A stretch of DNA of 64,000 bases from an uncultured Clostridia bacterium (GTDB taxonomy: Bacteria > Bacillota > Clostridia > Oscillospirales > Acutalibacteraceae). Position numbers and translations under genes: made by a program. The stretch is taken from NCBI GenBank assembly GCA_947598155.1, contig CANQFC010000005.1, forward strand, positions 81,115 through 145,114, written 5' to 3'. Under the pieces are notes generated by a model, which worked only from the letters and a program-made list of their open reading frames with translations, ran no database searches and was not told the origin of the DNA. This document shows positions 2,623-13,160 of this stretch, one piece after another. The first letter of the stretch is position 1. Every line of letters begins with the position of its first letter.

Positions 2623-2743
2623 TTTCAACTTGGATTTTTATCATTTTAAGGGTATTTTAAAGTTAGATTTAATAAAAGAATTTTTGATTTGTTATTAGAA
2701 AAGTTTTAACTTAATATGTAAAAAAGTACAAGGAGTGGTGTTT

Positions 2744-5700
2744 ATGAAAAAAATAATATCGGTGGTTTTAGCGCTGTGTTTGATGGCGACGATATTTCCG
2801 TTTACGGTATTTTCTCAAAACATCACTCCCGAAATATCGCTTGAGGAGTTTACAAAACAACTAAATCGGCTTCAGGAGGAATATGACGGAAATTTTGTTT
2901 CGGAAATCATTATTGAAGACGATAAGGAGTTTTGCCATATTGACGGTGAGGAATATCCCGTTGCCGATGATTTGGAAACAACAGCCGAAGTTACCGAAAA
3001 CGATATTGAAATTCCGTATTCCTTAATAGAACAGTATGTTGAAATTCCCGAAATTTCAACATATTCGCAAGCGCAAAACGACAATGGCGCAACTGTTGAC
3101 AAAGAAGCCGCCGAAGCTCTCGGTTTTGAGGTAGATATTGACGAGGATAAAGCTGTGCTTACACAGCCTTATCAGACCAAAAGGCTGATAGTAAAATCCA
3201 AGTATAATATAGACCGTCTTGACAGCGTAGCCGTAGTTGAGGGTTACGATGATTTGCATATAGTGCAGTTTGACAGCCGTGAAAGCGCAAAGCAGGCGGA
3301 AGAATACTACAACAGTCAAATGCTTGTTGAATTTGCCGAGCCCGATTTGGTTATGTCAACAATGGAATATGAGGACAGCGAAACGGAAAGCGCACCTACA
3401 TACGGCATAAACGACTATGGCTATCATCTGTCTTGGGGCAGTGAATATACAGGTATTGACGATTATATTGACTATATCGGCGACAGAAATAATCTGCCTG
3501 AAATAGTAGTTGGAGTAATTGATACAGGAATTGATGTTGACCATGAGTTTCTCAAAGACAGAATTATCCGCACTAATTATAATATAAGCTCGTCAGGTGA
3601 AGAAAATGATGAAAATGACGATAAAGGTCACGGTACACATGTCGCAGGCATTATTGCCGATAACACTTTAGACAATGTTAAAATTAAAGGCTACAAGGCT
3701 TTAAACAGTGCAGGAAACGGTACGCTTTCCGATGTCATAATAGCTTTTGATTATGCAGTTGCAGACGGTGTAAAGATAATCAATATGAGCCTTAGTACTG
3801 AGGGTACAAGTAAAACATTTGAAAAATCTATTAACGAAGCTACCAAAGACGGGGTGATAGTATGTGTTTCCGCCGGAAACAGCGGTCACTATGCTTCCCG
3901 AAACTGTCCGGCAAACATTGAAAGCTGTCTAACAGTAGGCGCTTATGAAGCCGGGCCTACTTTAAATACGTTTATGATTCCAATTTGGAGTTGTGACGGT
4001 CCATTGGTTGATGTAGTAGCGCCTGGTGTATCCATTTACAGCACATATCTTGATAACGGATATGAAACATTAAGCGGAACATCAATGGCTTCTCCTTTTG
4101 TCGCTGCGTCTGCCGCGCTCCTTTTATCTAAGAATATTAGTTTAAACGCTGACGGAGTATGCGATTTGTTACAGGAGAACGGAAAGCCCTTTGTTTGGCA
4201 TCCCGGAATCACTTATTATAAATTATACCTTGCTACAATAATCGAATACAATCAGTACCGGACAGATGAGCCCGTGTTCAGTATGGAAAGCGGCAGGTAT
4301 TCCGACAGCGTAACGGTGGAACTTTCCTGCCCCGAAGAAAATGCCGAGATATATTATACCCTCGACGGTTCAAGAGCCTCAAGGGCGAACGGAATTCTTT
4401 ACACAGAGCCTATTGTAATTGACAAGGTAACTAAGGTTCACGCCGCCGCCTACGCCGGAGACAAGCTGAAAAGTCTTCAGGCAATAGCCGATTACTATAT
4501 AACCGTGACAGACTCGGATGGAAATTTTGAAATAGATACGGACGGGTTGATTACTAAATATAACGGGACAAATCAGTATTTGACGATTCCCGATACAATT
4601 AACGGTATTACGGTAACGGGAATCGGAAAAGGCGCCTTTAACGGTAAAGGTATGATTATGATGAAATTCCCCGACACATTAACATACATAGCCGCATGGG
4701 GCCTTCAAGGGCAGTCATCATTAAAGTCAGTTTACTGCAACAATTTGAAAGTAGTCGGCGAAAGAGGATTCTATGGTTGCCGCGCGCTTGATACTATAGA
4801 TTTAACACAGCTTGAAGAAGTAGGCGTATACAGCTTTGGACAGTGTACTTCTATTCAAGAACTCTATAACGATAAATTGACAAGGTTAGAAAAGGGCTCG
4901 TTCTATCGTATAACAAACGCTGTAAGTGTTGATTTACCGAATGTTACATCTATTGATAATCTTGGATTAACAAGTTTAAACAATGTAGAACATATTAATT
5001 TACCAAAACTTGAGGCAATGGGAAACGGTGTTTTTGACGGTGCTTTCCTTTTAGAGACAATAGATCTTCCAAGCTTAACAACTTTAACCGGCAATCATTG
5101 CTTTGGAGCAACATCTAACCTAAAAGAACTAAATGTACCTAAATTAAGCGGAACAATTCATCAGAGTACTTTTTCAGGTTCTGCGCTTGAATATATTGAT
5201 TTTCCGAATGTTACGGCTTTAGAAAGTGGCGCTTTTTCCGGTTGCAATGCTAAAGTTATAAGATTACCAAGTGTTACAACGATTGAAGAGCAGGCTTTTT
5301 ACAATTGTATTAAATTAGAAGAATTATACATTCCATTAGCAACAAATATACCTGAAAGATCTCTTTTTAATGCGAAATCACTTAGAGTTTTGTTTGCTCC
5401 AAATGTAACAAACGCAGTATCAATGCCCGAGTGCGACGGTACAACAATATATCTGTCCAATGCTTGTACCAATCTGCCTGCTATACAAAGATATTCCTAT
5501 AACATCGTAGCGCCGTCGGGCTCATATGCAGAGCAATGGGCAAGTGAAAACGGGCATAATTTCATACCGAGCGACAGCAGAAATGAAAGCATAAAAAATC
5601 CCTCTAATGTAGCGGATTTGGGCAGGTCGATTTGCGTCTCTGCCGCAGGACTTCGTTTCGGCTTTAACTGGGATAATCTTGAGGAAATCGAAAGTCTTGC

Positions 5701-6037
5701 GGACAATATCGAATACGGCTTCGTTTACAGCATTAACGGTACGGAAGATTTAAGCGTTGACAAGACAGACAACATAAATGTAAGAAAAACGGAAGCAATA
5801 AACCGTGTCGACCACGGCAGTATAACCTCGTTTAATCTTGTTTTTGCAAATGTTCCGAAAGAATTTTGGGACAGCAAGCTTACCGCAAGGGCTTATGTAA
5901 ATATTGACGGAATGTATTTCTATTCCAATGTATCAACAGGAAGCTTTACCGAGGTAGCAAACCTTGTTTTGGCTGACGATACGGTTGACGAGACTACAAA
6001 ACAAGCCATAAGAAAATTGTTAGGCGGAGAGGTGTAA
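2744..6037 (+). CDS. secreted S8 (subtilisin-family) serine peptidase with C-terminal leucine-rich-repeat (BspA-like) region
   Basis: Signal peptide MKKIISVVLALCLMATIFPFTVFS. Catalytic triad motifs VGVIDTGID, HGTHVAGII, SGTSMASPFVA. Propeptide-like region upstream of the triad, and repeated LRR-like segments from about residue 600. Start moved to the ATG preceded by AAGGAG. Confidence 0.9.
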   Translation: MKKIISVVLALCLMATIFPFTVFSQNITPEISLEEFTKQLNRLQEEYDGNFVSEIIIEDDKEFCHIDGEEYPVADDLETTAEVTENDIEIPYSLIEQYVEIPEISTYSQAQNDNGATVDKEAAEALGFEVDIDEDKAVLTQPYQTKRLIVKSKYNIDRLDSVAVVEGYDDLHIVQFDSRESAKQAEEYYNSQMLVEFAEPDLVMSTMEYEDSETESAPTYGINDYGYHLSWGSEYTGIDDYIDYIGDRNNLPEIVVGVIDTGIDVDHEFLKDRIIRTNYNISSSGEENDENDDKGHGTHVAGIIADNTLDNVKIKGYKALNSAGNGTLSDVIIAFDYAVADGVKIINMSLSTEGTSKTFEKSINEATKDGVIVCVSAGNSGHYASRNCPANIESCLTVGAYEAGPTLNTFMIPIWSCDGPLVDVVAPGVSIYSTYLDNGYETLSGTSMASPFVAASAALLLSKNISLNADGVCDLLQENGKPFVWHPGITYYKLYLATIIEYNQYRTDEPVFSMESGRYSDSVTVELSCPEENAEIYYTLDGSRASRANGILYTEPIVIDKVTKVHAAAYAGDKLKSLQAIADYYITVTDSDGNFEIDTDGLITKYNGTNQYLTIPDTINGITVTGIGKGAFNGKGMIMMKFPDTLTYIAAWGLQGQSSLKSVYCNNLKVVGERGFYGCRALDTIDLTQLEEVGVYSFGQCTSIQELYNDKLTRLEKGSFYRITNAVSVDLPNVTSIDNLGLTSLNNVEHINLPKLEAMGNGVFDGAFLLETIDLPSLTTLTGNHCFGATSNLKELNVPKLSGTIHQSTFSGSALEYIDFPNVTALESGAFSGCNAKVIRLPSVTTIEEQAFYNCIKLEELYIPLATNIPERSLFNAKSLRVLFAPNVTNAVSMPECDGTTIYLSNACTNLPAIQRYSYNIVAPSGSYAEQWASENGHNFIPSDSRNESIKNPSNVADLGRSICVSAAGLRFGFNWDNLEEIESLADNIEYGFVYSINGTEDLSVDKTDNINVRKTEAINRVDHGSITSFNLVFANVPKEFWDSKLTARAYVNIDGMYFYSNVSTGSFTEVANLVLADDTVDETTKQAIRKLLGGEV

Positions 6038-7620: not shown

Positions 7621-7716
<96 letters not shown>

Positions 7717-7756: not shown

Positions 7757-8080
7757 TTATATGGTTCTTACCTCAACTTGAACTTCTGTTATAATGTCAC
7801 GAAGCTTATCGCCGTCGATGGTATATTCTAAAATTTCATCGGCAGTTTTTGCATACACACCTTCAATATTACTGCATGGTTCATGGCTTTTTACATTTCG
7901 GTGTACTCCGTTGCTGTCAGTGTAATAACCCTCGCCGATATTTATCTTATCTTCGACATGTACAATTGAATATGCTTTACCTTTCCAAACAAATTCAACT
8001 TCACCGCCGCATTTCATACACCATTTAAAATCACTGATACTTTCAAATTTTAATGCTTCGCTGTTATTATATAGAATCAT
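7757..8080 (-). CDS. hypothetical protein (107 aa)
   Basis: ORF with GAGGTG 8 nt upstream of the internal ATG at 8080. I recognise no motif beyond a CMKCGG segment. Confidence 0.5.
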   Translation of the reverse strand: MILYNNSEALKFESISDFKWCMKCGGEVEFVWKGKAYSIVHVEDKINIGEGYYTDSNGVHRNVKSHEPCSNIEGVYAKTADEILEYTIDGDKLRDIITEVQVEVRTI

Positions 8081-8235
8081 ATTGCTTGCACCTCGCCAAT
8101 TTTTGAATTCCGGGAAATCCCCGTTCGGATAGTTAATAGGTGGTTGCAAATGAGGGAAACTATTACTCCAATCAATTTTATTTTATAATTAAAATTTTCT
8201 TTTGTCAAAATAAAACTATTTATAATTTTTAGTGA

Positions 8236-8610
8236 ACATTTAATTTACATATACACTTTACTTTCTCAGTGAAAAGTGAAAAAGTAAAAATCCGAGGTAC
8301 TTTAGTTGCTGCCATTTTAAATAATTTTGATGCTGTTGACAATTCATTAGAAACAATGACTAATAGTGCCGGTAGTGCAATGAAAGAGATGGAAATTATT
8401 GAGAATTCTCTTGAATTCAAATTGAACGCATTAGAGGAAACATCTGTTGGTATATTTCAAAATCTTTTTCATTCAGACCAAATGGGTTCTGTAATAGATT
8501 TTTTAACTAATTTACTTGAAATTCTTGATTCTATAACAGAAAAAATAGGCTTATTTGGTACTTTAGGAGCAAGTATTGGAATAGCCGCATTTATAAAGAG
8601 TATATCTTAA
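8236..8610 (+). pseudogene. internal fragment of a phage tail tape-measure protein (TP901-type core)
   Basis: Open frame with no credible start or RBS. The sequence ...NSAGSAMKEMEIIENSLEFKLNALEETSVGIFQNL...GLFGTLGASIGIAAFIK resembles the conserved tape-measure core. Confidence 0.55.
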
Positions 8611-9086
8611 CCTAATATATATGGTTGCTTAATAGCAGAGGATAGCACAGATAAGTATATAGACAAGTCTGTGAGCGTAGATACTCTATAAATAATTCTA
8701 CGAGGAGTAAATGCTGGGAAACTGGTTAAACCGATTATACTACAACATAATAGGAAACTATAAGTGTGAATGTTGCGAAAGCAGAAAAAAAATAATCGGA
8801 TGGTGCAAGGGAATAAATACGCCTAAACACCAAGTTCTGATTAAGAACAGATAGGATAACATCAGCAGGACATCGACCTAAAAGGCGAAATCCCCAGAGA
8901 CTACCCATCCTCCGAGTTATTATTTTATATAATAGCTTGTAATGTATAGTCCAAACAAAAGTGAAAACTTATCTTTCACTATAATTGTGGTACGCACTAT
9001 ATCTGTGTTGATAAGAAGATATAAATAATAATACACATAATTCTTACATATAAATATTATATATAGAATATTTTTAGGTGAAAAAA

Positions 9087-9308
9087 ATGGAATTTAATAA
9101 ATATGATTTAATCTTTACTATTAAAAAAGCTCAAAATTCTAATGATATTGTAATATTGAAAGAACTATTATTCATTTATAATCAATTGTTAAAACAAGAA
9201 ACAATAAATAACAATATAATAGAAACTTTTTATTGTTATCAAAAAATTTCACAAAACACAATAGAATTTTATAATAGAAATAAAAAAAATAGAAGATACC
9301 TTCTATAA
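9087..9308 (+). CDS. small hypothetical protein (73 aa), paralog of 9353..9556
   Basis: AGGTG lies 6 nt upstream of the ATG. Shares the pattern ELL..Y...L.QE.INN..I.EF..Y...S with the 67-aa ORF on the other strand. Confidence 0.5.
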   Translation: MEFNKYDLIFTIKKAQNSNDIVILKELLFIYNQLLKQETINNNIIETFYCYQKISQNTIEFYNRNKKNRRYLL

Positions 9309-9343
9309 GATATCTTTTTATAAGGTATCTTATAAGGTATCTT
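9293..9343. repeat. array of four 10-bp near-palindromic motifs AAG(A/G)TA(T/C)CTT between the convergent small genes
   Basis: Motifs at 9293, 9307, 9322 and 9334. The outer pair forms a perfect 12-bp inverted repeat, AGAAGATACCTT (9291..9302) / AAGGTATCTTCT (9334..9345). Confidence 0.7.
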
Positions 9344-9352
9344 CTTACTTGT

Positions 9353-9556
9353 TTATACATTTACTGATAATAGTATTTTTTTCGATGCCTCCGATAGATT
9401 TTCATAAAAAATAAATTCCATAATATAATCATTGTTTATTTTTTCTTGCTCTAACATTTTATAATATAAGGATAATAATTCCTCATATGAATTATATTCT
9501 TTATTTTTATATGCAGAATTGATTGCAGAAATTAAAACATTGCGTTTGATAGCCAT
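9353..9556 (-). CDS. small hypothetical protein (67 aa) coupled to the TIR gene
   Basis: The ATG lies 1 nt after the TIR gene stop, with GGAGG 9 nt upstream. Predicted to be helical and very AT-rich. Confidence 0.6.
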   Translation of the reverse strand: MAIKRNVLISAINSAYKNKEYNSYEELLSLYYKMLEQEKINNDYIMEFIFYENLSEASKKILLSVNV

Positions 9557-9557
9557 A

Positions 9558-10787
9558 TTATTCTTCCTCCGTATTCAAAATATCTTTTAAATTCCATTTA
9601 GGATTTAATTGCATTGAGGAAGATATATATTGAATCAAAAAATTTTCAATAAATCTATCAATTCTTAATACCAATAATGGAACAAGAAGCTCTCTGCTCT
9701 TATTTTTAGATTTATTTATAATTGAAATACACATAGAAATATCCATATCATAAAGTTTTGATATAGAATCAAAGGTAAATGTTATATAATCCCGTTTAAT
9801 TTGTTCATTGGCATGAGCCTTTTTATGTAAATCTTCATTATAACTTTTAACAACAGGCATACTTGTTTTTTGTGAACATTCTATCATTCCACCTTTTGCA
9901 GCAATAGGCCTTGTCGATAAATTTATAATTGGATAACCGATGTTGCTAAATTTAATATATTTATCATTTTTCTTAAATCTAAAATGAACACAAGTATCAT
10001 CTATCCCTACGAAATATTGTTGAATATATGAAAATATTTGAATTAAGTAACTTTCAAGATTATTTTTACCATATGCCATTAATGTGCCATTAGTTAATCT
10101 TGGTGAAGTTATTAATGTAGATAACATCTGTAATTGCTTGTTTGTTATTTCTTCTAATTTTAATATAAATTGCTGAATTTCATTTATATATAAAATTGTT
10201 TTATCAAATAAATTTTGTGTCAAACTAATTGATTTAAGATTTCCGTCTTTTATAATTGGGATTTTAACATCGGTTTTATTTGCCGTATTTTTAGTTTTTT
10301 TATTATTTACTTTACTTAAACTTTTATTATCATTGTTAAAGTATTCTTTAAACAAATTACTGATTCCTATAAAAGCATCAATATAACCTCTATCTTGTGG
10401 GCGAAATGATTTTATTGGTTTGCCATCAGTAGGAACAAATTTCAAACAATTAAACACATAATCCCCAGGTACAATATCTTTGCAGATAACCGGTATTACA
10501 ATACATTTTCCTTCTTTATGTCTTTTTATGGCATTTTCAAGTTCTATATCATAACAATATTTAGAAGCAATAAAATCTGGAGTAATAAGAAGAAAAATAA
10601 CATTAGAATCTTTAAGGTTTTTCAAAATTTCTTTATCTATATCACCACCAGGGTTTATCCTACCATCATACCATTGAGAAATATTATAAAGCCGTGATAG
10701 TGCATCTAAATGTGTTTTAAATCTATCACATATTGACTTATCTTTATGTGAATATGAAATAAAGCACTTGATATTATCATTTGACAT
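9558..10787 (-). CDS. TIR-domain protein with uncharacterised ~230-aa C-terminal region
   Basis: N-terminus CFISYSHKDKSICDRF...VIFLLITPDFIASKYCYDIELENAI matches the bacterial TIR_2 pattern, including the conserved Glu. GGAGG lies 6 nt upstream of the ATG. Confidence 0.8.
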   Translation of the reverse strand: MSNDNIKCFISYSHKDKSICDRFKTHLDALSRLYNISQWYDGRINPGGDIDKEILKNLKDSNVIFLLITPDFIASKYCYDIELENAIKRHKEGKCIVIPVICKDIVPGDYVFNCLKFVPTDGKPIKSFRPQDRGYIDAFIGISNLFKEYFNNDNKSLSKVNNKKTKNTANKTDVKIPIIKDGNLKSISLTQNLFDKTILYINEIQQFILKLEEITNKQLQMLSTLITSPRLTNGTLMAYGKNNLESYLIQIFSYIQQYFVGIDDTCVHFRFKKNDKYIKFSNIGYPIINLSTRPIAAKGGMIECSQKTSMPVVKSYNEDLHKKAHANEQIKRDYITFTFDSISKLYDMDISMCISIINKSKNKSRELLVPLLVLRIDRFIENFLIQYISSSMQLNPKWNLKDILNTEEE

Positions 10788-10962
10788 ATTTTACCTCCTT
10801 TTATGTTGTTAAATTATAACATAATATAATCATATATTCAATATTTATTACAAAAAAAATATAAAATAAACATGTCCAATCAATTTTGTAGGGAATAAAA
10901 TATAATATGTTACATTATTTAGGCTATCAAGTCTAACCGCAATTTGTACGATAATTAACTGT

Positions 10963-11502
10963 TTACCACTTATATCCGCAATGATTACATTTGAATTGTG
11001 ACCTTGCGGTTTTGCTTAACAAACCAAATGTTGCCGCTCCGATTACTTTTGAAGTGGTGGAAATCTTTTGGGTGTTTGTTGAGCCGCAGGTTGGGCATTT
11101 AATAGCTTTTTTCTGTCTTTCCCTCCATCTCTTATCAAGTTCTGCAATTTTAGTATTTAAGGGATTTATATAATCTGAATCCGAAGGAACAAAATCCATC
11201 TCATAACCAAGTTGACCAAAAGAGTGTTTAAGGTACTCCATGCTTTCAACTTCTATACCTTGCAATATTATATTTCCTTGGGTACTAAGTAATGTGCAAC
11301 CTTGTCCTTTTTCAACTTTAAACACATCTTCAAGGAAATCACTTGCACAACCCCTTTTAGGATTGGCACTTATAGTTTTTAAAACCATATCATATATACC
11401 AGAATTCGATACATAACTTTCTAAGGGGAAGCCACAGTGAATACATTGTTTGGATTTATCAGAAATCTCTTTTCCGCATTCAGGACAATTTATTAATGCC
11501 AT
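10963..11502 (-). CDS. double zinc-ribbon protein
   Basis: N-terminal CPECG...CIHCG and C-terminal CPTCG...CNHCG, with a short hydrophobic stretch between the latter pair. Start set at MALINCPECG with AGGAG 8 nt upstream. Confidence 0.65.
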   Translation of the reverse strand: MALINCPECGKEISDKSKQCIHCGFPLESYVSNSGIYDMVLKTISANPKRGCASDFLEDVFKVEKGQGCTLLSTQGNIILQGIEVESMEYLKHSFGQLGYEMDFVPSDSDYINPLNTKIAELDKRWRERQKKAIKCPTCGSTNTQKISTTSKVIGAATFGLLSKTARSQFKCNHCGYKW

Positions 11503-11554
11503 ATAATCATCTCCTTTGATACAGTATACCACAACTGTATTTTTAATTCAATAG

Positions 11555-12802
11555 TCTGCATATAAAGAATTAAAGGATGCGGATGGTTTTATTACTTCAA
11601 CAAAATCAGGTAAAATTAAAAAATTACTAAATGAAGCATTTAATCTTGATGACACCAGTAAAATATCGGGTAAAGTATTTAAAAACCTCTCAAACGGCGC
11701 AAAACAGTATGCGGCTTCATTAAAAGAAACCCACAACCCGATTAAAGCATTCAATGCTGGCTTATCCGCTATGAGTACAACGGCAAAAACACTATTAGGA
11801 ACATTTGCTATTGTAACCGCCGTAATTGCCGCCATTAAATTTGCCGAAAGTGCATATGACAAATCGCATGATAATTTAGATGACCTTTCTGAAAAAGGCA
11901 GTAAAATTTCAGAAGAACTTTCTAATGTAAAAAGTGATATTGATAAAATAGACGAACAAATTTCGGCATTGATTAAGCAAAGATTAAGTATCACGGATTC
12001 AAGTGATATTTCTACTTTAAATACACAAATTGAACTTTTAAAACAGCGGAAAGAACTCTTGGAGTGGCAATATGAAAATAAGAAAAGAGAAGCCGAAAAT
12101 AATGCCAAGGAAAAAATTGAGGGTACTAAAAACGACTCTGTCTATAACGGTGCTTCCTATATGGATGGCGAAAAAGGGAAATTATCAAAAGGCAAAAGAT
12201 TTTTCTATTTGATTGGTGGTGAACAAGCACCAACAACATATAGTGCAGAAGCATATGTAGATACATTAGAAAACAGACTTGCTTCCATTCATCCGGAAGA
12301 ATTAGAGAGTGTTTTATATAATCTTGAAGAAATATATAATACCTATGATGAAATTGTTCAAAATGACGATTTAATTGGAACAGAAACATATGATATTGCC
12401 ATCGAAAAGCAGAAACAAATTAATGAATTACTTCAAGAAACACAATATTTGCAAGAAGTTAGAAATGGATTAGATAAAGAATACATAAATGATGCGGATT
12501 TTTCAGATTATTTAGGTGGATATGTTCTTTATCAAAAGAACTTAAATTCCCTTATTCAAAAAGGTTATTCTAATGGAATAGTAACCTTAAAAGATGTAAA
12601 GAGTCAATTTGGAGACTATGCTTCTAATTTGGAAAATGAATTGGGTAAACAAGAAAGAACTCTTGAAGATTATGTTACTTGGTTAAATGCTGCTTCTGCT
12701 TCTCAAATTGAATTTCTTAATAGTTCAAATGTTAATAGTTCAGCAACCTCTTTTAAGAGTTATTCAAAGGCACTTAATGAATATAAAGATAACCTCGGAT
12801 TT
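11555..12802 (+). pseudogene. fragment of a phage tail tape-measure protein (truncated at both ends)
   Basis: The frame opens right after a stop with no start codon. It has a membrane-like segment TLLGTFAIVTAVIAAIKFAE followed by coiled-coil-like sequence. The reading frame then runs into a tRNA 3' fragment and non-coding repeats. Confidence 0.55.
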
Positions 12803-12826
12803 TTGGTGGAGACGGTCGGGATCGAA
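12803..12826. repeat. third, short copy of the tRNA-Ala 3' end
   Basis: TTGGTGGAGACGGTCGGGATCGAA is identical to 13084..13107 and 7657..7680. Confidence 0.8.
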
Positions 12827-13020
12827 GCTTCGCTTCGTTCGGTTGCTTCGCAACCCTTTCGCATTTTTATGTCCGCCTCGCTCTGCCTATCGGCAAACCG
12901 CTCGGCATGGACTAATTCGCTTCGCTTGCTTCGTTCGCTTGCTTCGCAACCCTTTCGCATTTTTATGTCCGCCTCGCTCTGCCTGTCGGCAAACCGCTCG
13001 GCATGGACTGTTCGGTTCGC
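12827..13020. repeat. two tandem copies of a ~96-bp unit
   Basis: GCTTCGCAACCCTTTCGCATTTTTATGTCCGCCTCGCTCTGCCT(A/G)TCGGCAAACCGCTCGGCATGGACT occurs at 12845..12913 and 12941..13009. Confidence 0.85.
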
Positions 13021-13048
13021 TCCCGACGTTATACTTTGCAAAATAAAC

Positions 13049-13160
<112 letters not shown>

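Follow-up and report, generated by a model that had tools for sequence, protein, structure and literature searches.

A TIR gene with a GAF-like C-terminal module and a small partner gene on prophages of gut Clostridia: a candidate phage-exclusion cassette

TIR enzymes are common to bacterial, plant and animal immunity, and the central question for each of them is how it is held in the off-state and how it is switched on. We ask this question of an AT-rich cassette at positions 9078-10787 of a 64,000 nt-long stretch of DNA from an uncultured Clostridia bacterium of the Acutalibacteraceae (contig CANQFC010000005.1; the whole stretch is called the window here), in which the gene of a 409 amino acid (aa) TIR protein is followed by a 67-aa gene and faced by a third, convergent one. 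The original prediction, made from the letters alone, had taken this locus for a candidate undescribed anti-phage defence module. We favour, as somewhat better than an even bet, a mobile-element-borne abortive-infection or superinfection-exclusion module, in which the TIR domain would be the NAD+-depleting effector, a GAF-like C-terminal domain would sense or regulate, and the small protein or proteins would act as a brake or co-sensor. The four open reading frames (ORFs) on which the prediction was built are all present at the positions it had given; those of the cassette, with the parts of the TIR protein, are the following.

9558..10787, minus strand: gene of the 409-aa TIR protein; the ORF was confirmed
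10320..10787, minus strand: aa 1-156 of the 409-aa protein, forming the TIR domain, in which Glu82 takes the catalytic position
10272..10319, minus strand: flexible linker rich in Lys, Asn and Ser, aa 157-172, between the TIR domain and the C-terminal module
9561..10271, minus strand: C-terminal module, aa 173-409, predicted to be GAF-like
9353..9556, minus strand: gene of the small partner, 67 aa, predicted to be coupled to the TIR gene
9087..9308, plus strand: convergent gene of the small paralogue, 73 aa from the ATG at 9087 (76 aa from the GTG at 9078), with its own ribosome-binding site AGGTG

The TIR call holds in profile searches. The 409-aa protein matches Pfam TIR_2 (2.2e-13, 51.2 bits against a cut-off of 28) and Pfam TIR (6.3e-07, 29.8 against a cut-off of 21.3), both of which are matched by 64 of 64 family members, and it is also found by the PADLOC ThsB1 model PDLC00420 (8e-36). 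In the AlphaFold2 (AF2) model this part of the protein has the TIR fold, for which Foldseek returned the TIR domains of MAL, TRR-2, RPS4 and SARM1. Glu82, which had been recognised as lying at the catalytic position, is invariant in the alignment of the 64 full-length relatives; it stands at the start of helix alpha-C, as the Glu of NADase-class TIR domains does, and in HMMER alignments to solved structures it is matched to the WxxxE glutamate, the catalytic residue, of Cat1, RPS4 and the bacterial TIR 7uxr. The nearest solved TIR by sequence is that of Cat1 (3e-07), a ligand-activated NADase that forms filaments. Judging from these alignments, the TIR domain of the 409-aa protein is most likely of the NAD-cleaving type. 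It is followed by a linker that varies in length across the family alignment and is modelled with a predicted local distance difference test score (pLDDT) below 50 at aa 157-168.

The PADLOC match (the best match was ThsB1) brings in a first alternative, namely that the TIR domain works as a Thoeris-like sensor and makes a signal that acts on an effector whose gene lies elsewhere in the genome, and weak Pfam ThsB_TIR matches in 37 of the 64 members point in the same direction. However, the ThsB1 match is limited to the generic TIR core (aa 8-160, corresponding to positions 4-156 of a model of 319 positions), and no SIR2/SLOG, Macro or caspase-like effector was found within 6-9 kb or in the related loci. 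The NCBIfam model of the Thoeris type III protein ThcB4 gave 19 bits against a cut-off of 220. We consider a Thoeris-like signal maker scarcely probable, and a further argument, given below, comes from the exchange of the TIR domain in relatives.

The C-terminal part had been described as unassignable to any family. Its ~240 aa are indeed matched by no profile of Pfam, NCBIfam, PADLOC or PHROG, either in the 409-aa protein or in the 64 relatives; newer precomputed Pfam annotations of the TIR-GAF-like proteins list TIR alone, and a profile search of the PDB sequences for it gave nothing below E 0.5. Structure prediction, however, does give an assignment, to a GAF-like fold. The full-length AF2 model made with the family alignment reached a pLDDT of 90, and the model of the domain alone a pLDDT of 94.9 and a predicted template modelling score (pTM) of 0.91, showing in order a beta-hairpin, two ~30-residue helices, a GAF-like alpha/beta core and C-terminal helices. 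When the domain model was compared with the PDB by Foldseek, the top 14 matches were GAF or GAF-fold proteins (E 4.6e-05 to 1.6e-02, template modelling (TM) score to the target 0.39-0.54), the best being NlhH2 (4g3v, 4.6e-05), 3e0y, the cAMP-bound GAF domain of Lcd1 (5w10) and the GAF domains of PtsP (3trc, 3ci6), and after the GAF domains came IclR- and LuxR-type ligand-binding domains. Because the TM-scores are about 0.5, we label the module GAF-like and, with moderate confidence in what the model indicates, do not count it as a member of the GAF family. The polar residues H268, R270, K314, N317, Y334, T336, S351 and S355 are invariant or nearly so in the 64-member alignment, which is compatible with, and suggestive only of, a ligand pocket. 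Foldseek also links two phage proteins to the domain, one a 'membrane protein' of a Gordonia phage and the other a 'GAF domain-containing protein'.

These features can also be read as those of an orphan second-messenger effector, whose GAF-like domain would bind a cyclic nucleotide or an ADP-ribose derivative that comes from the phage or from an enzyme with its gene at another place, with the TIR or membrane domain as executor. The cAMP-bound Lcd1 domain among the best structural matches and the invariant Arg, Lys, His, Asn, Tyr and Thr residues agree with it, and so does the alternation of TIR and transmembrane domains on a ligand-binding domain, which mirrors Pycsar/Pucsar. On the other hand, no sequence profile of GAF or of cyclic nucleotide-binding domains matches, the conserved partner is a 55-101-aa protein without an enzyme fold, and no cyclase, CD-NTase, Cas10 or second TIR gene is a conserved neighbour in the 14 related loci that we compared (11 TIR loci and three loci of the membrane variants described below). 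We regard the orphan effector as distinctly unlikely. An extra, TIR-only gene of 153 aa was seen in one of these loci (L105, 4732-5193), 36 nt upstream of the TIR-GAF-like gene.

About 70 full-length relatives, 28-61% identical, were found in the protein database, essentially confined to gut Clostridia and their prophages, and the four full-length relatives found in species-representative genomes are all from Clostridia. One of the relatives, P0058, is present on more than 180 contigs, and its NCBI label is that of a TIR protein of Caudoviricetes. Scans of metagenomes and viral contigs yielded next to nothing, and the matches on plasmids are similar in the TIR domain only and belong to a different family of ~315 aa. 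When the profile of the C-terminal domain was run exhaustively against 1.84 billion proteins, 230 representative proteins were found at E<=0.001 (179 at E<=1e-10 and 45 at E<=1e-30). Among them is a second group of ~370-400 aa, which has the same C-terminal domain and no Pfam TIR match, with at least two strongly hydrophobic helices at its N-terminus and a coiled coil. The motifs VRVHFRYL, GMIY, SLIKSLN, DYxTL and SMGISV of the C-terminal domain are common to this group and the TIR fusions. The membrane variants have no Pfam domain and no name in the libraries searched, and a 55-66-aa gene lies directly downstream in three of the three loci fetched:

L109, 5001-6355: membrane variant in a phage, adjoining terminase genes
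L110, 5001-6396: membrane variant in an integrative element with a Prim-Pol gene, in a 7.3-Mb genome (AP021875.1)
L111, 388-1744: membrane variant with the small downstream gene present

A third arrangement is that of P0006, a protein of 708 aa (L103 and L104; P0010 is a fragment) in which a PNP_UDP_1 nucleosidase domain (1.2e-10) precedes the TIR-GAF-like part; the two small genes are both retained downstream of it, and ~3 kb downstream of P0006 there is an AbiEii gene. Since TIR, PNP-TIR and membrane N-termini occur on one domain, the GAF-like domain and the small gene appear to be the constant unit and the N-terminal toxic domain the swappable one, a pattern that fits a sensor-controlled toxic effector. 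The presence of a membrane domain in place of the TIR on one scaffold also argues that the TIR domain is an effector and not a ThsB-like signal synthase.

The TIR core most similar to that of the cassette family is found in the ~315-aa TIR proteins of proteobacterial plasmids (precomputed Pfam PF27176 plus TIR). Two such plasmid TIR genes (L107, 4010-5477, and L108, 4007-5649) are each followed by a gene of a 161-173-aa hypothetical protein, and these pairs may be another unnamed two-gene TIR module.

Co-occurrence of the TIR gene and the small gene in other genomes had been put forward as a check in the original prediction. A small same-strand ORF of 65-101 aa lies directly 3' of the TIR gene in 11 of the 11 distinct TIR loci (the window, L007, L015, L020-L024, L103, L105 and L106), and across the homologous loci it starts between 23 nt before and 130 nt after the stop of the large gene. 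In the window the gap is 1 nt and the GGAGG of the 67-aa gene sits within the final TIR codons, both as had been noted. A small gene so close to the preceding one, and with its ribosome-binding site within it, is what a type II toxin-antitoxin system would show, and the 67-aa gene reads as translationally coupled to the TIR gene.

Orthologues of the 67-aa protein are encoded directly downstream in L020 and L021 (45-53% identity), and aligned orthologues also in L103, L105 and L106 (43-52%), the small proteins of the clade closest to the window protein being 43-62% identical to each other. Those of the two more distant TIR clades were not detectable by BLAST, and a word-indexed homologue search with the 67-aa query returned the self-match only. 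A profile of the close clade (clade A) ranks the downstream small ORFs of five of the five distinct clade-B and clade-C loci 2nd to 10th among 1577 ORFs, at individual E-values of 0.14-0.57, and these ORFs align with the shared helix-loop-helix pattern. Matches of the small proteins to Rho_N (E 0.041) and JetD (E 0.0037) are weak and were dismissed as chance.

The 73-aa protein had been proposed as a paralogue of the 67-aa one, and the two are 35% identical over 51 aa; each of them matches both small ORFs of L021 at 42-53%. A convergent, tail-to-tail paralogue is found in four of the six close loci (the window, L021, L103 and L105). The pairs within a locus are 28-42% identical and those between loci 37% on average, so that same-locus pairs are no more alike than cross-locus ones, from which the duplication appears to be old, with both copies retained. 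The downstream copies are 49% identical among themselves, against 38% for the convergent copies.

The tight two-gene operon with translational coupling is also what a toxin-antitoxin addiction module would show, with a TIR-GAF toxin, a co-translated antitoxin and a convergent spare that together mainly stabilise the prophage or mobile element. This explanation has several points on its side: the cassette is always on mobile elements and, like an addictive module, has outlasted the decay of the prophage, its toxic domains can be exchanged, and NAD+-degrading toxins with small partners are established in the RES-Xre toxin-antitoxin pairs. Yet the small protein lacks any DNA-binding or protease-labile antitoxin signature, and the elaborate, conserved, sensor-like domain with its invariant polar residues would be superfluous for a plain toxin. 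We hold addiction to be rather unlikely as an explanation, and it is compatible with a defence role, since the two are not exclusive.

Two further elements of the cassette bear on its expression:

9280..9356: AT-rich inverted repeat between the two convergent small genes, a candidate bidirectional terminator
10788..10962, minus strand: intergenic region 5' of the TIR gene, with promoter-like hexamers

The arms of the inverted repeat (9280-9305 and 9331-9356) are 26 nt long and 81% complementary according to the repeat finder; the hairpin was not picked up by a G+C-based terminator scan, because it is AT-rich. Upstream of the TIR gene, the hexamer pairs are TTGATA-17-TATTAT (10930->10902) and TTGAAT-17-TATAAT with a TG (10841->10813), from which we infer that the gene has its own promoter within 10788..10962; the number of promoter-like sites in this region is not above chance. 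The conspicuous AT-richness that had first set the block apart is found in the base composition, with a G+C content of 0.237 at 9078-10787, 0.333 in the rest of the island in which the cassette lies and 0.405-0.423 in the chromosomal flanks. The homologous cassettes are likewise more AT-rich than their surroundings, in nine of nine loci.

The features of this island, together with a neighbouring gene that had been counted to the module, are these:

7621..7716: left 96-nt direct repeat, attachment site (att)-like, a displaced 3' part of tRNA-Ala, 98% identical to 13049-13143
7757-8149, minus strand: 130-aa protein in the island (phrog_3711, 6.2e-09)
8269..8610, plus strand: tape-measure fragment, 113 aa (phrog_4211, 1.6e-13; TIGR01760, 1.3e-04)
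10963..11532, minus strand: double zinc-ribbon protein, 189 aa (179 aa in public gene calls)
11771..13114, plus strand: tail- or tape-measure-like fragment, 447 aa (phrog_167, 1.4e-05, weaker)
13049-13143: right direct repeat (repeat finder), overlapping tRNA-Ala(GGC) at 13085-13160, minus strand (ARAGORN)

The tRNA-Ala island of the original prediction was recovered, with the tRNA gene at 13085..13160 (minus strand) and 96-nt direct repeats as its borders. The repeats contain the 3' 59 nt of the tRNA plus 36 nt beyond it and together with the tRNA gene carry what is recognisably the signature of integration at a tRNA gene. Since neither an integrase gene nor any further phage structural gene was seen inside it, the 5.4-kb island reads as a prophage remnant integrated at tRNA-Ala, of which the 130-aa phrog_3711 protein is probably another surviving gene. 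The 113-aa fragment is 31% identical to aa 875-982 of the tape-measure ORFs beside the P0058 cassettes (aa 1270-1377 in L008). The 447-aa ORF passes through tandem repeats, by which the peptide ASQPFRIFMSASLCLSANRSAWT is duplicated, and then runs antisense to tRNA-Ala; its last part is therefore probably no true coding sequence. At 12802-12826 lies a third copy, of 25 nt, of the 3' end of tRNA-Ala, and an 82-nt tandem duplication was seen at 12832-12913 and 12928-13009 (98% identical); the extra tRNA-end copies and the duplication look like scars of repeated integration.

The cassette had been thought to sit inside a broken tape-measure gene. Fragments of that kind do flank it, but the arrangement is not simply that of an insertion that broke the gene, and a prophage moron is the better reading. 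The cassette stands just after the tape-measure gene in the P0058 and P0040 prophages, and between the tail-fibre and the holin/lysin genes in L021. Cassettes thus placed in the tail or late region of prophages were seen in three clades, directly after the tape-measure gene in two, with that of the window adjoining a tape-measure fragment. At the P0058 loci a divergent HTH_3 gene precedes the cassette and an unannotated 1500-1700-aa protein follows it. Other cassettes are carried by an element with Mob_Pre and integrase genes (L105) or lie beside transposases or defence-type genes, such as AbiEii (L103), SLFN_AlbA_2 (L106) and AAA_14/DUF4143 (L020).

This setting raises the possibility of a phage offensive or lifecycle gene that manipulates host NAD+ or the timing of lysis, or, in the window, of a decaying leftover. 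In keeping with this, the gene lies in the late region of the P0058 and P0040 prophages and reads in the direction of the tail genes, the membrane variants adjoin phage packaging genes, and the island in the window is a remnant. However, the cassettes of the window and of L021 run opposite to the tail genes that flank them, the divergent HTH_3 gene of the P0058 loci suggests autonomous expression, and cassettes also occur in non-phage elements. The state of the genes also speaks against it: all three cassette genes are whole, and they do not differ among 12 contigs from several samples, despite the decay of the surrounding prophage, in which neighbouring phage genes are truncated. We judge an offensive, lifecycle or leftover gene to be very improbable.

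The zinc-ribbon protein does have the two ribbons ascribed to it, one matching Zn_Ribbon_1 (2.1e-07, aa 16-37) and the second at aa 134-187. Its inclusion in the module was not upheld: the gene was not found beside the closest homologous cassettes, and we rejected it as a cassette part and treat it as neighbouring phage cargo. Its C-terminal ribbon is ~47% identical to 189-aa ORFs in P0058-type prophages, and this is the only part with a resemblance.

Outside the island, a metagenome contig of a related strain (L117, 1-2620) encodes an identical MGMT protein and has 99% DNA identity to the window from 13591 onward; left of that point the tRNA-Ala and the island are replaced by a GH3 glycosidase, so that the region is rearranged in that strain. 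About 1.6 kb left of the left att repeat lies a gene, unrelated to the cassette, of an 1100-aa secreted subtilisin-like (Peptidase_S8) protein with LRR_5 repeats (2735-6037, plus strand).

How, then, might this TIR be held off and switched on? In the abortive-infection or superinfection-exclusion module that we favour, the core would be a two-gene cassette, with a third gene here, that travels as cargo on the prophages and other mobile elements of gut Clostridia. Its toxic effector would be the NAD+-cleaving TIR domain, kept inactive by the GAF-like module until a phage-derived cue, either a small ligand or a phage protein, is sensed. The cue would lead to oligomerisation, by which the TIR domains are brought together and their active sites form; the ensuing collapse of NAD+ would abort the infection and thereby protect against the phage, as with other sensor-TIR effectors. 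The co-translated small protein may bind the GAF-like module as an inhibitor or co-sensor, and the separately transcribed convergent paralogue would be a second regulator.

Several observations weigh against this module. The GAF assignment is a fold similarity of moderate strength (TM-score about 0.5, root-mean-square deviation 6-8 A), and GAF is absent from the Pfam matches of the 64 members at E<=1. The small proteins have no recognisable domain, and what they share with the small partners of the membrane variants is their position alone. The neighbourhood encodes no signal-making enzyme, and the best PADLOC match of the TIR is a ThsB-type model, which gives a signalling role a small probability. 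Finally, the family is absent from cultured-phage genomes, and neither an empty site nor a presence/absence polymorphism of the island was found among public contigs, which break at the att-like repeats.

A bolder version of the defence module, in three parts taken jointly, can be offered only tentatively, as more doubtful than the module itself. The GAF-like domain and its helical partner might form a portable, hitherto unrecognised phage-sensing module, to which a TIR NADase, a PNP-TIR pair or a domain that disrupts membranes can be coupled; the cassette, in moron slots of the tail module, might serve gut prophages to exclude rival phages; and the two old small paralogues, the co-translated and the convergently transcribed one, might be opposing regulators, for example a brake and a factor for self-immunity of the resident prophage.

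The family is a compact case of TIR control, in which one sensor-like domain and a 67-aa partner would govern either a TIR or a membrane effector. It is carried by prophages of gut Clostridia, bacteria that are hard to study and whose phage defences are largely uncharted. If active, the cassette would extend TIR-based immunity by a new class of sensor and help to explain phage-phage exclusion in the gut, and its survival in a decayed prophage may be a case of host retention of phage cargo.

It remains to set the cassette against the known systems. The lack of Thoeris, CBASS, SPARTA and retron partners had been pointed out from the start, and by Pfam content of the called genes there is neither SIR2, SLOG or Macro nor a cyclase, an Argonaute or a reverse transcriptase within 6-9 kb; the related loci, too, have no partner of these four systems, with no ThsA-type effector among them and no cyclase or CD-NTase in any of the 14. 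Membership in Thoeris, CBASS, Pycsar, SPARTA and retrons was rejected, as their defining partners are absent. The system also has no name in the profile libraries, as the original prediction had supposed: Pfam, NCBIfam (June 2026), PADLOC-DB 2.0, PHROGs and the PDB sequences hold no family for the C-terminal domain, the membrane variants or the small proteins, and no TIR-GAF system was found in the literature.

The likeness to Thoeris lies in the TIR core of the 409-aa protein, which scores best against the PADLOC ThsB model; a ThsA-type effector is adjacent in Thoeris, whereas none stands beside the 409-aa gene, and the family has in addition a 240-aa GAF-like domain, a small partner and the alternation of TIR and membrane domains. 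With RES-Xre pairs the cassette has in common a two-gene operon on mobile DNA, a (here predicted) NAD+-targeting enzyme and a small co-expressed partner, but it differs in its toxin-first order, in a partner without a helix-turn-helix, in the sensor-like domain of the large protein and in the second, convergent paralogue. One- and two-gene TIR loci are also known from E. coli, where 12 of 32 tested loci defend against phages, several as two-gene systems, and the anti-phage activity of TIR-I to TIR-IX depends on the TIR catalytic residue (PMC11350192). These loci, which we compared by description, are from Proteobacteria and have other or no recognised extra domains.

SpbK of ICEBs1 is a mobile-element-borne TIR NADase that is triggered by a phage portal protein, and the small phage-encoded protein Nip can inhibit the TIR (PMC11984713). 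Likened by description outside the TIR, it too combines a TIR and a second, non-TIR domain on a mobile element and has no separate effector, yet its TIR is C-terminal and that of the 409-aa protein N-terminal, and its inhibitor Nip is a phage gene whereas the small partner here is a gene of the cassette. A TIR domain fused to a ligand-binding type of domain is found likewise in the CNBD-TIR proteins of Pycsar/Pucsar, the TIR-SAVED and TIR-STING proteins of CBASS and the CARF-TIR protein Cat1 of type III CRISPR. In Pycsar/Pucsar one sensor type is paired with TIR or three-transmembrane effectors (10.64898/2026.08.12.744502), and the same alternation of TIR and membrane effectors on a common sensor is seen in the GAF-like family. 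In contrast to these systems, the GAF-like sensor has no sequence match to CNBD, SAVED, STING or CARF, the cassette has no cyclase, CD-NTase or Cas10, and its conserved partner is a tiny helical protein. The design principle of a sensor with swappable TIR or transmembrane effectors on mobile DNA is known, but this does not extend to the fold of the sensor, to the tiny partner or to its pairing with a paralogue.

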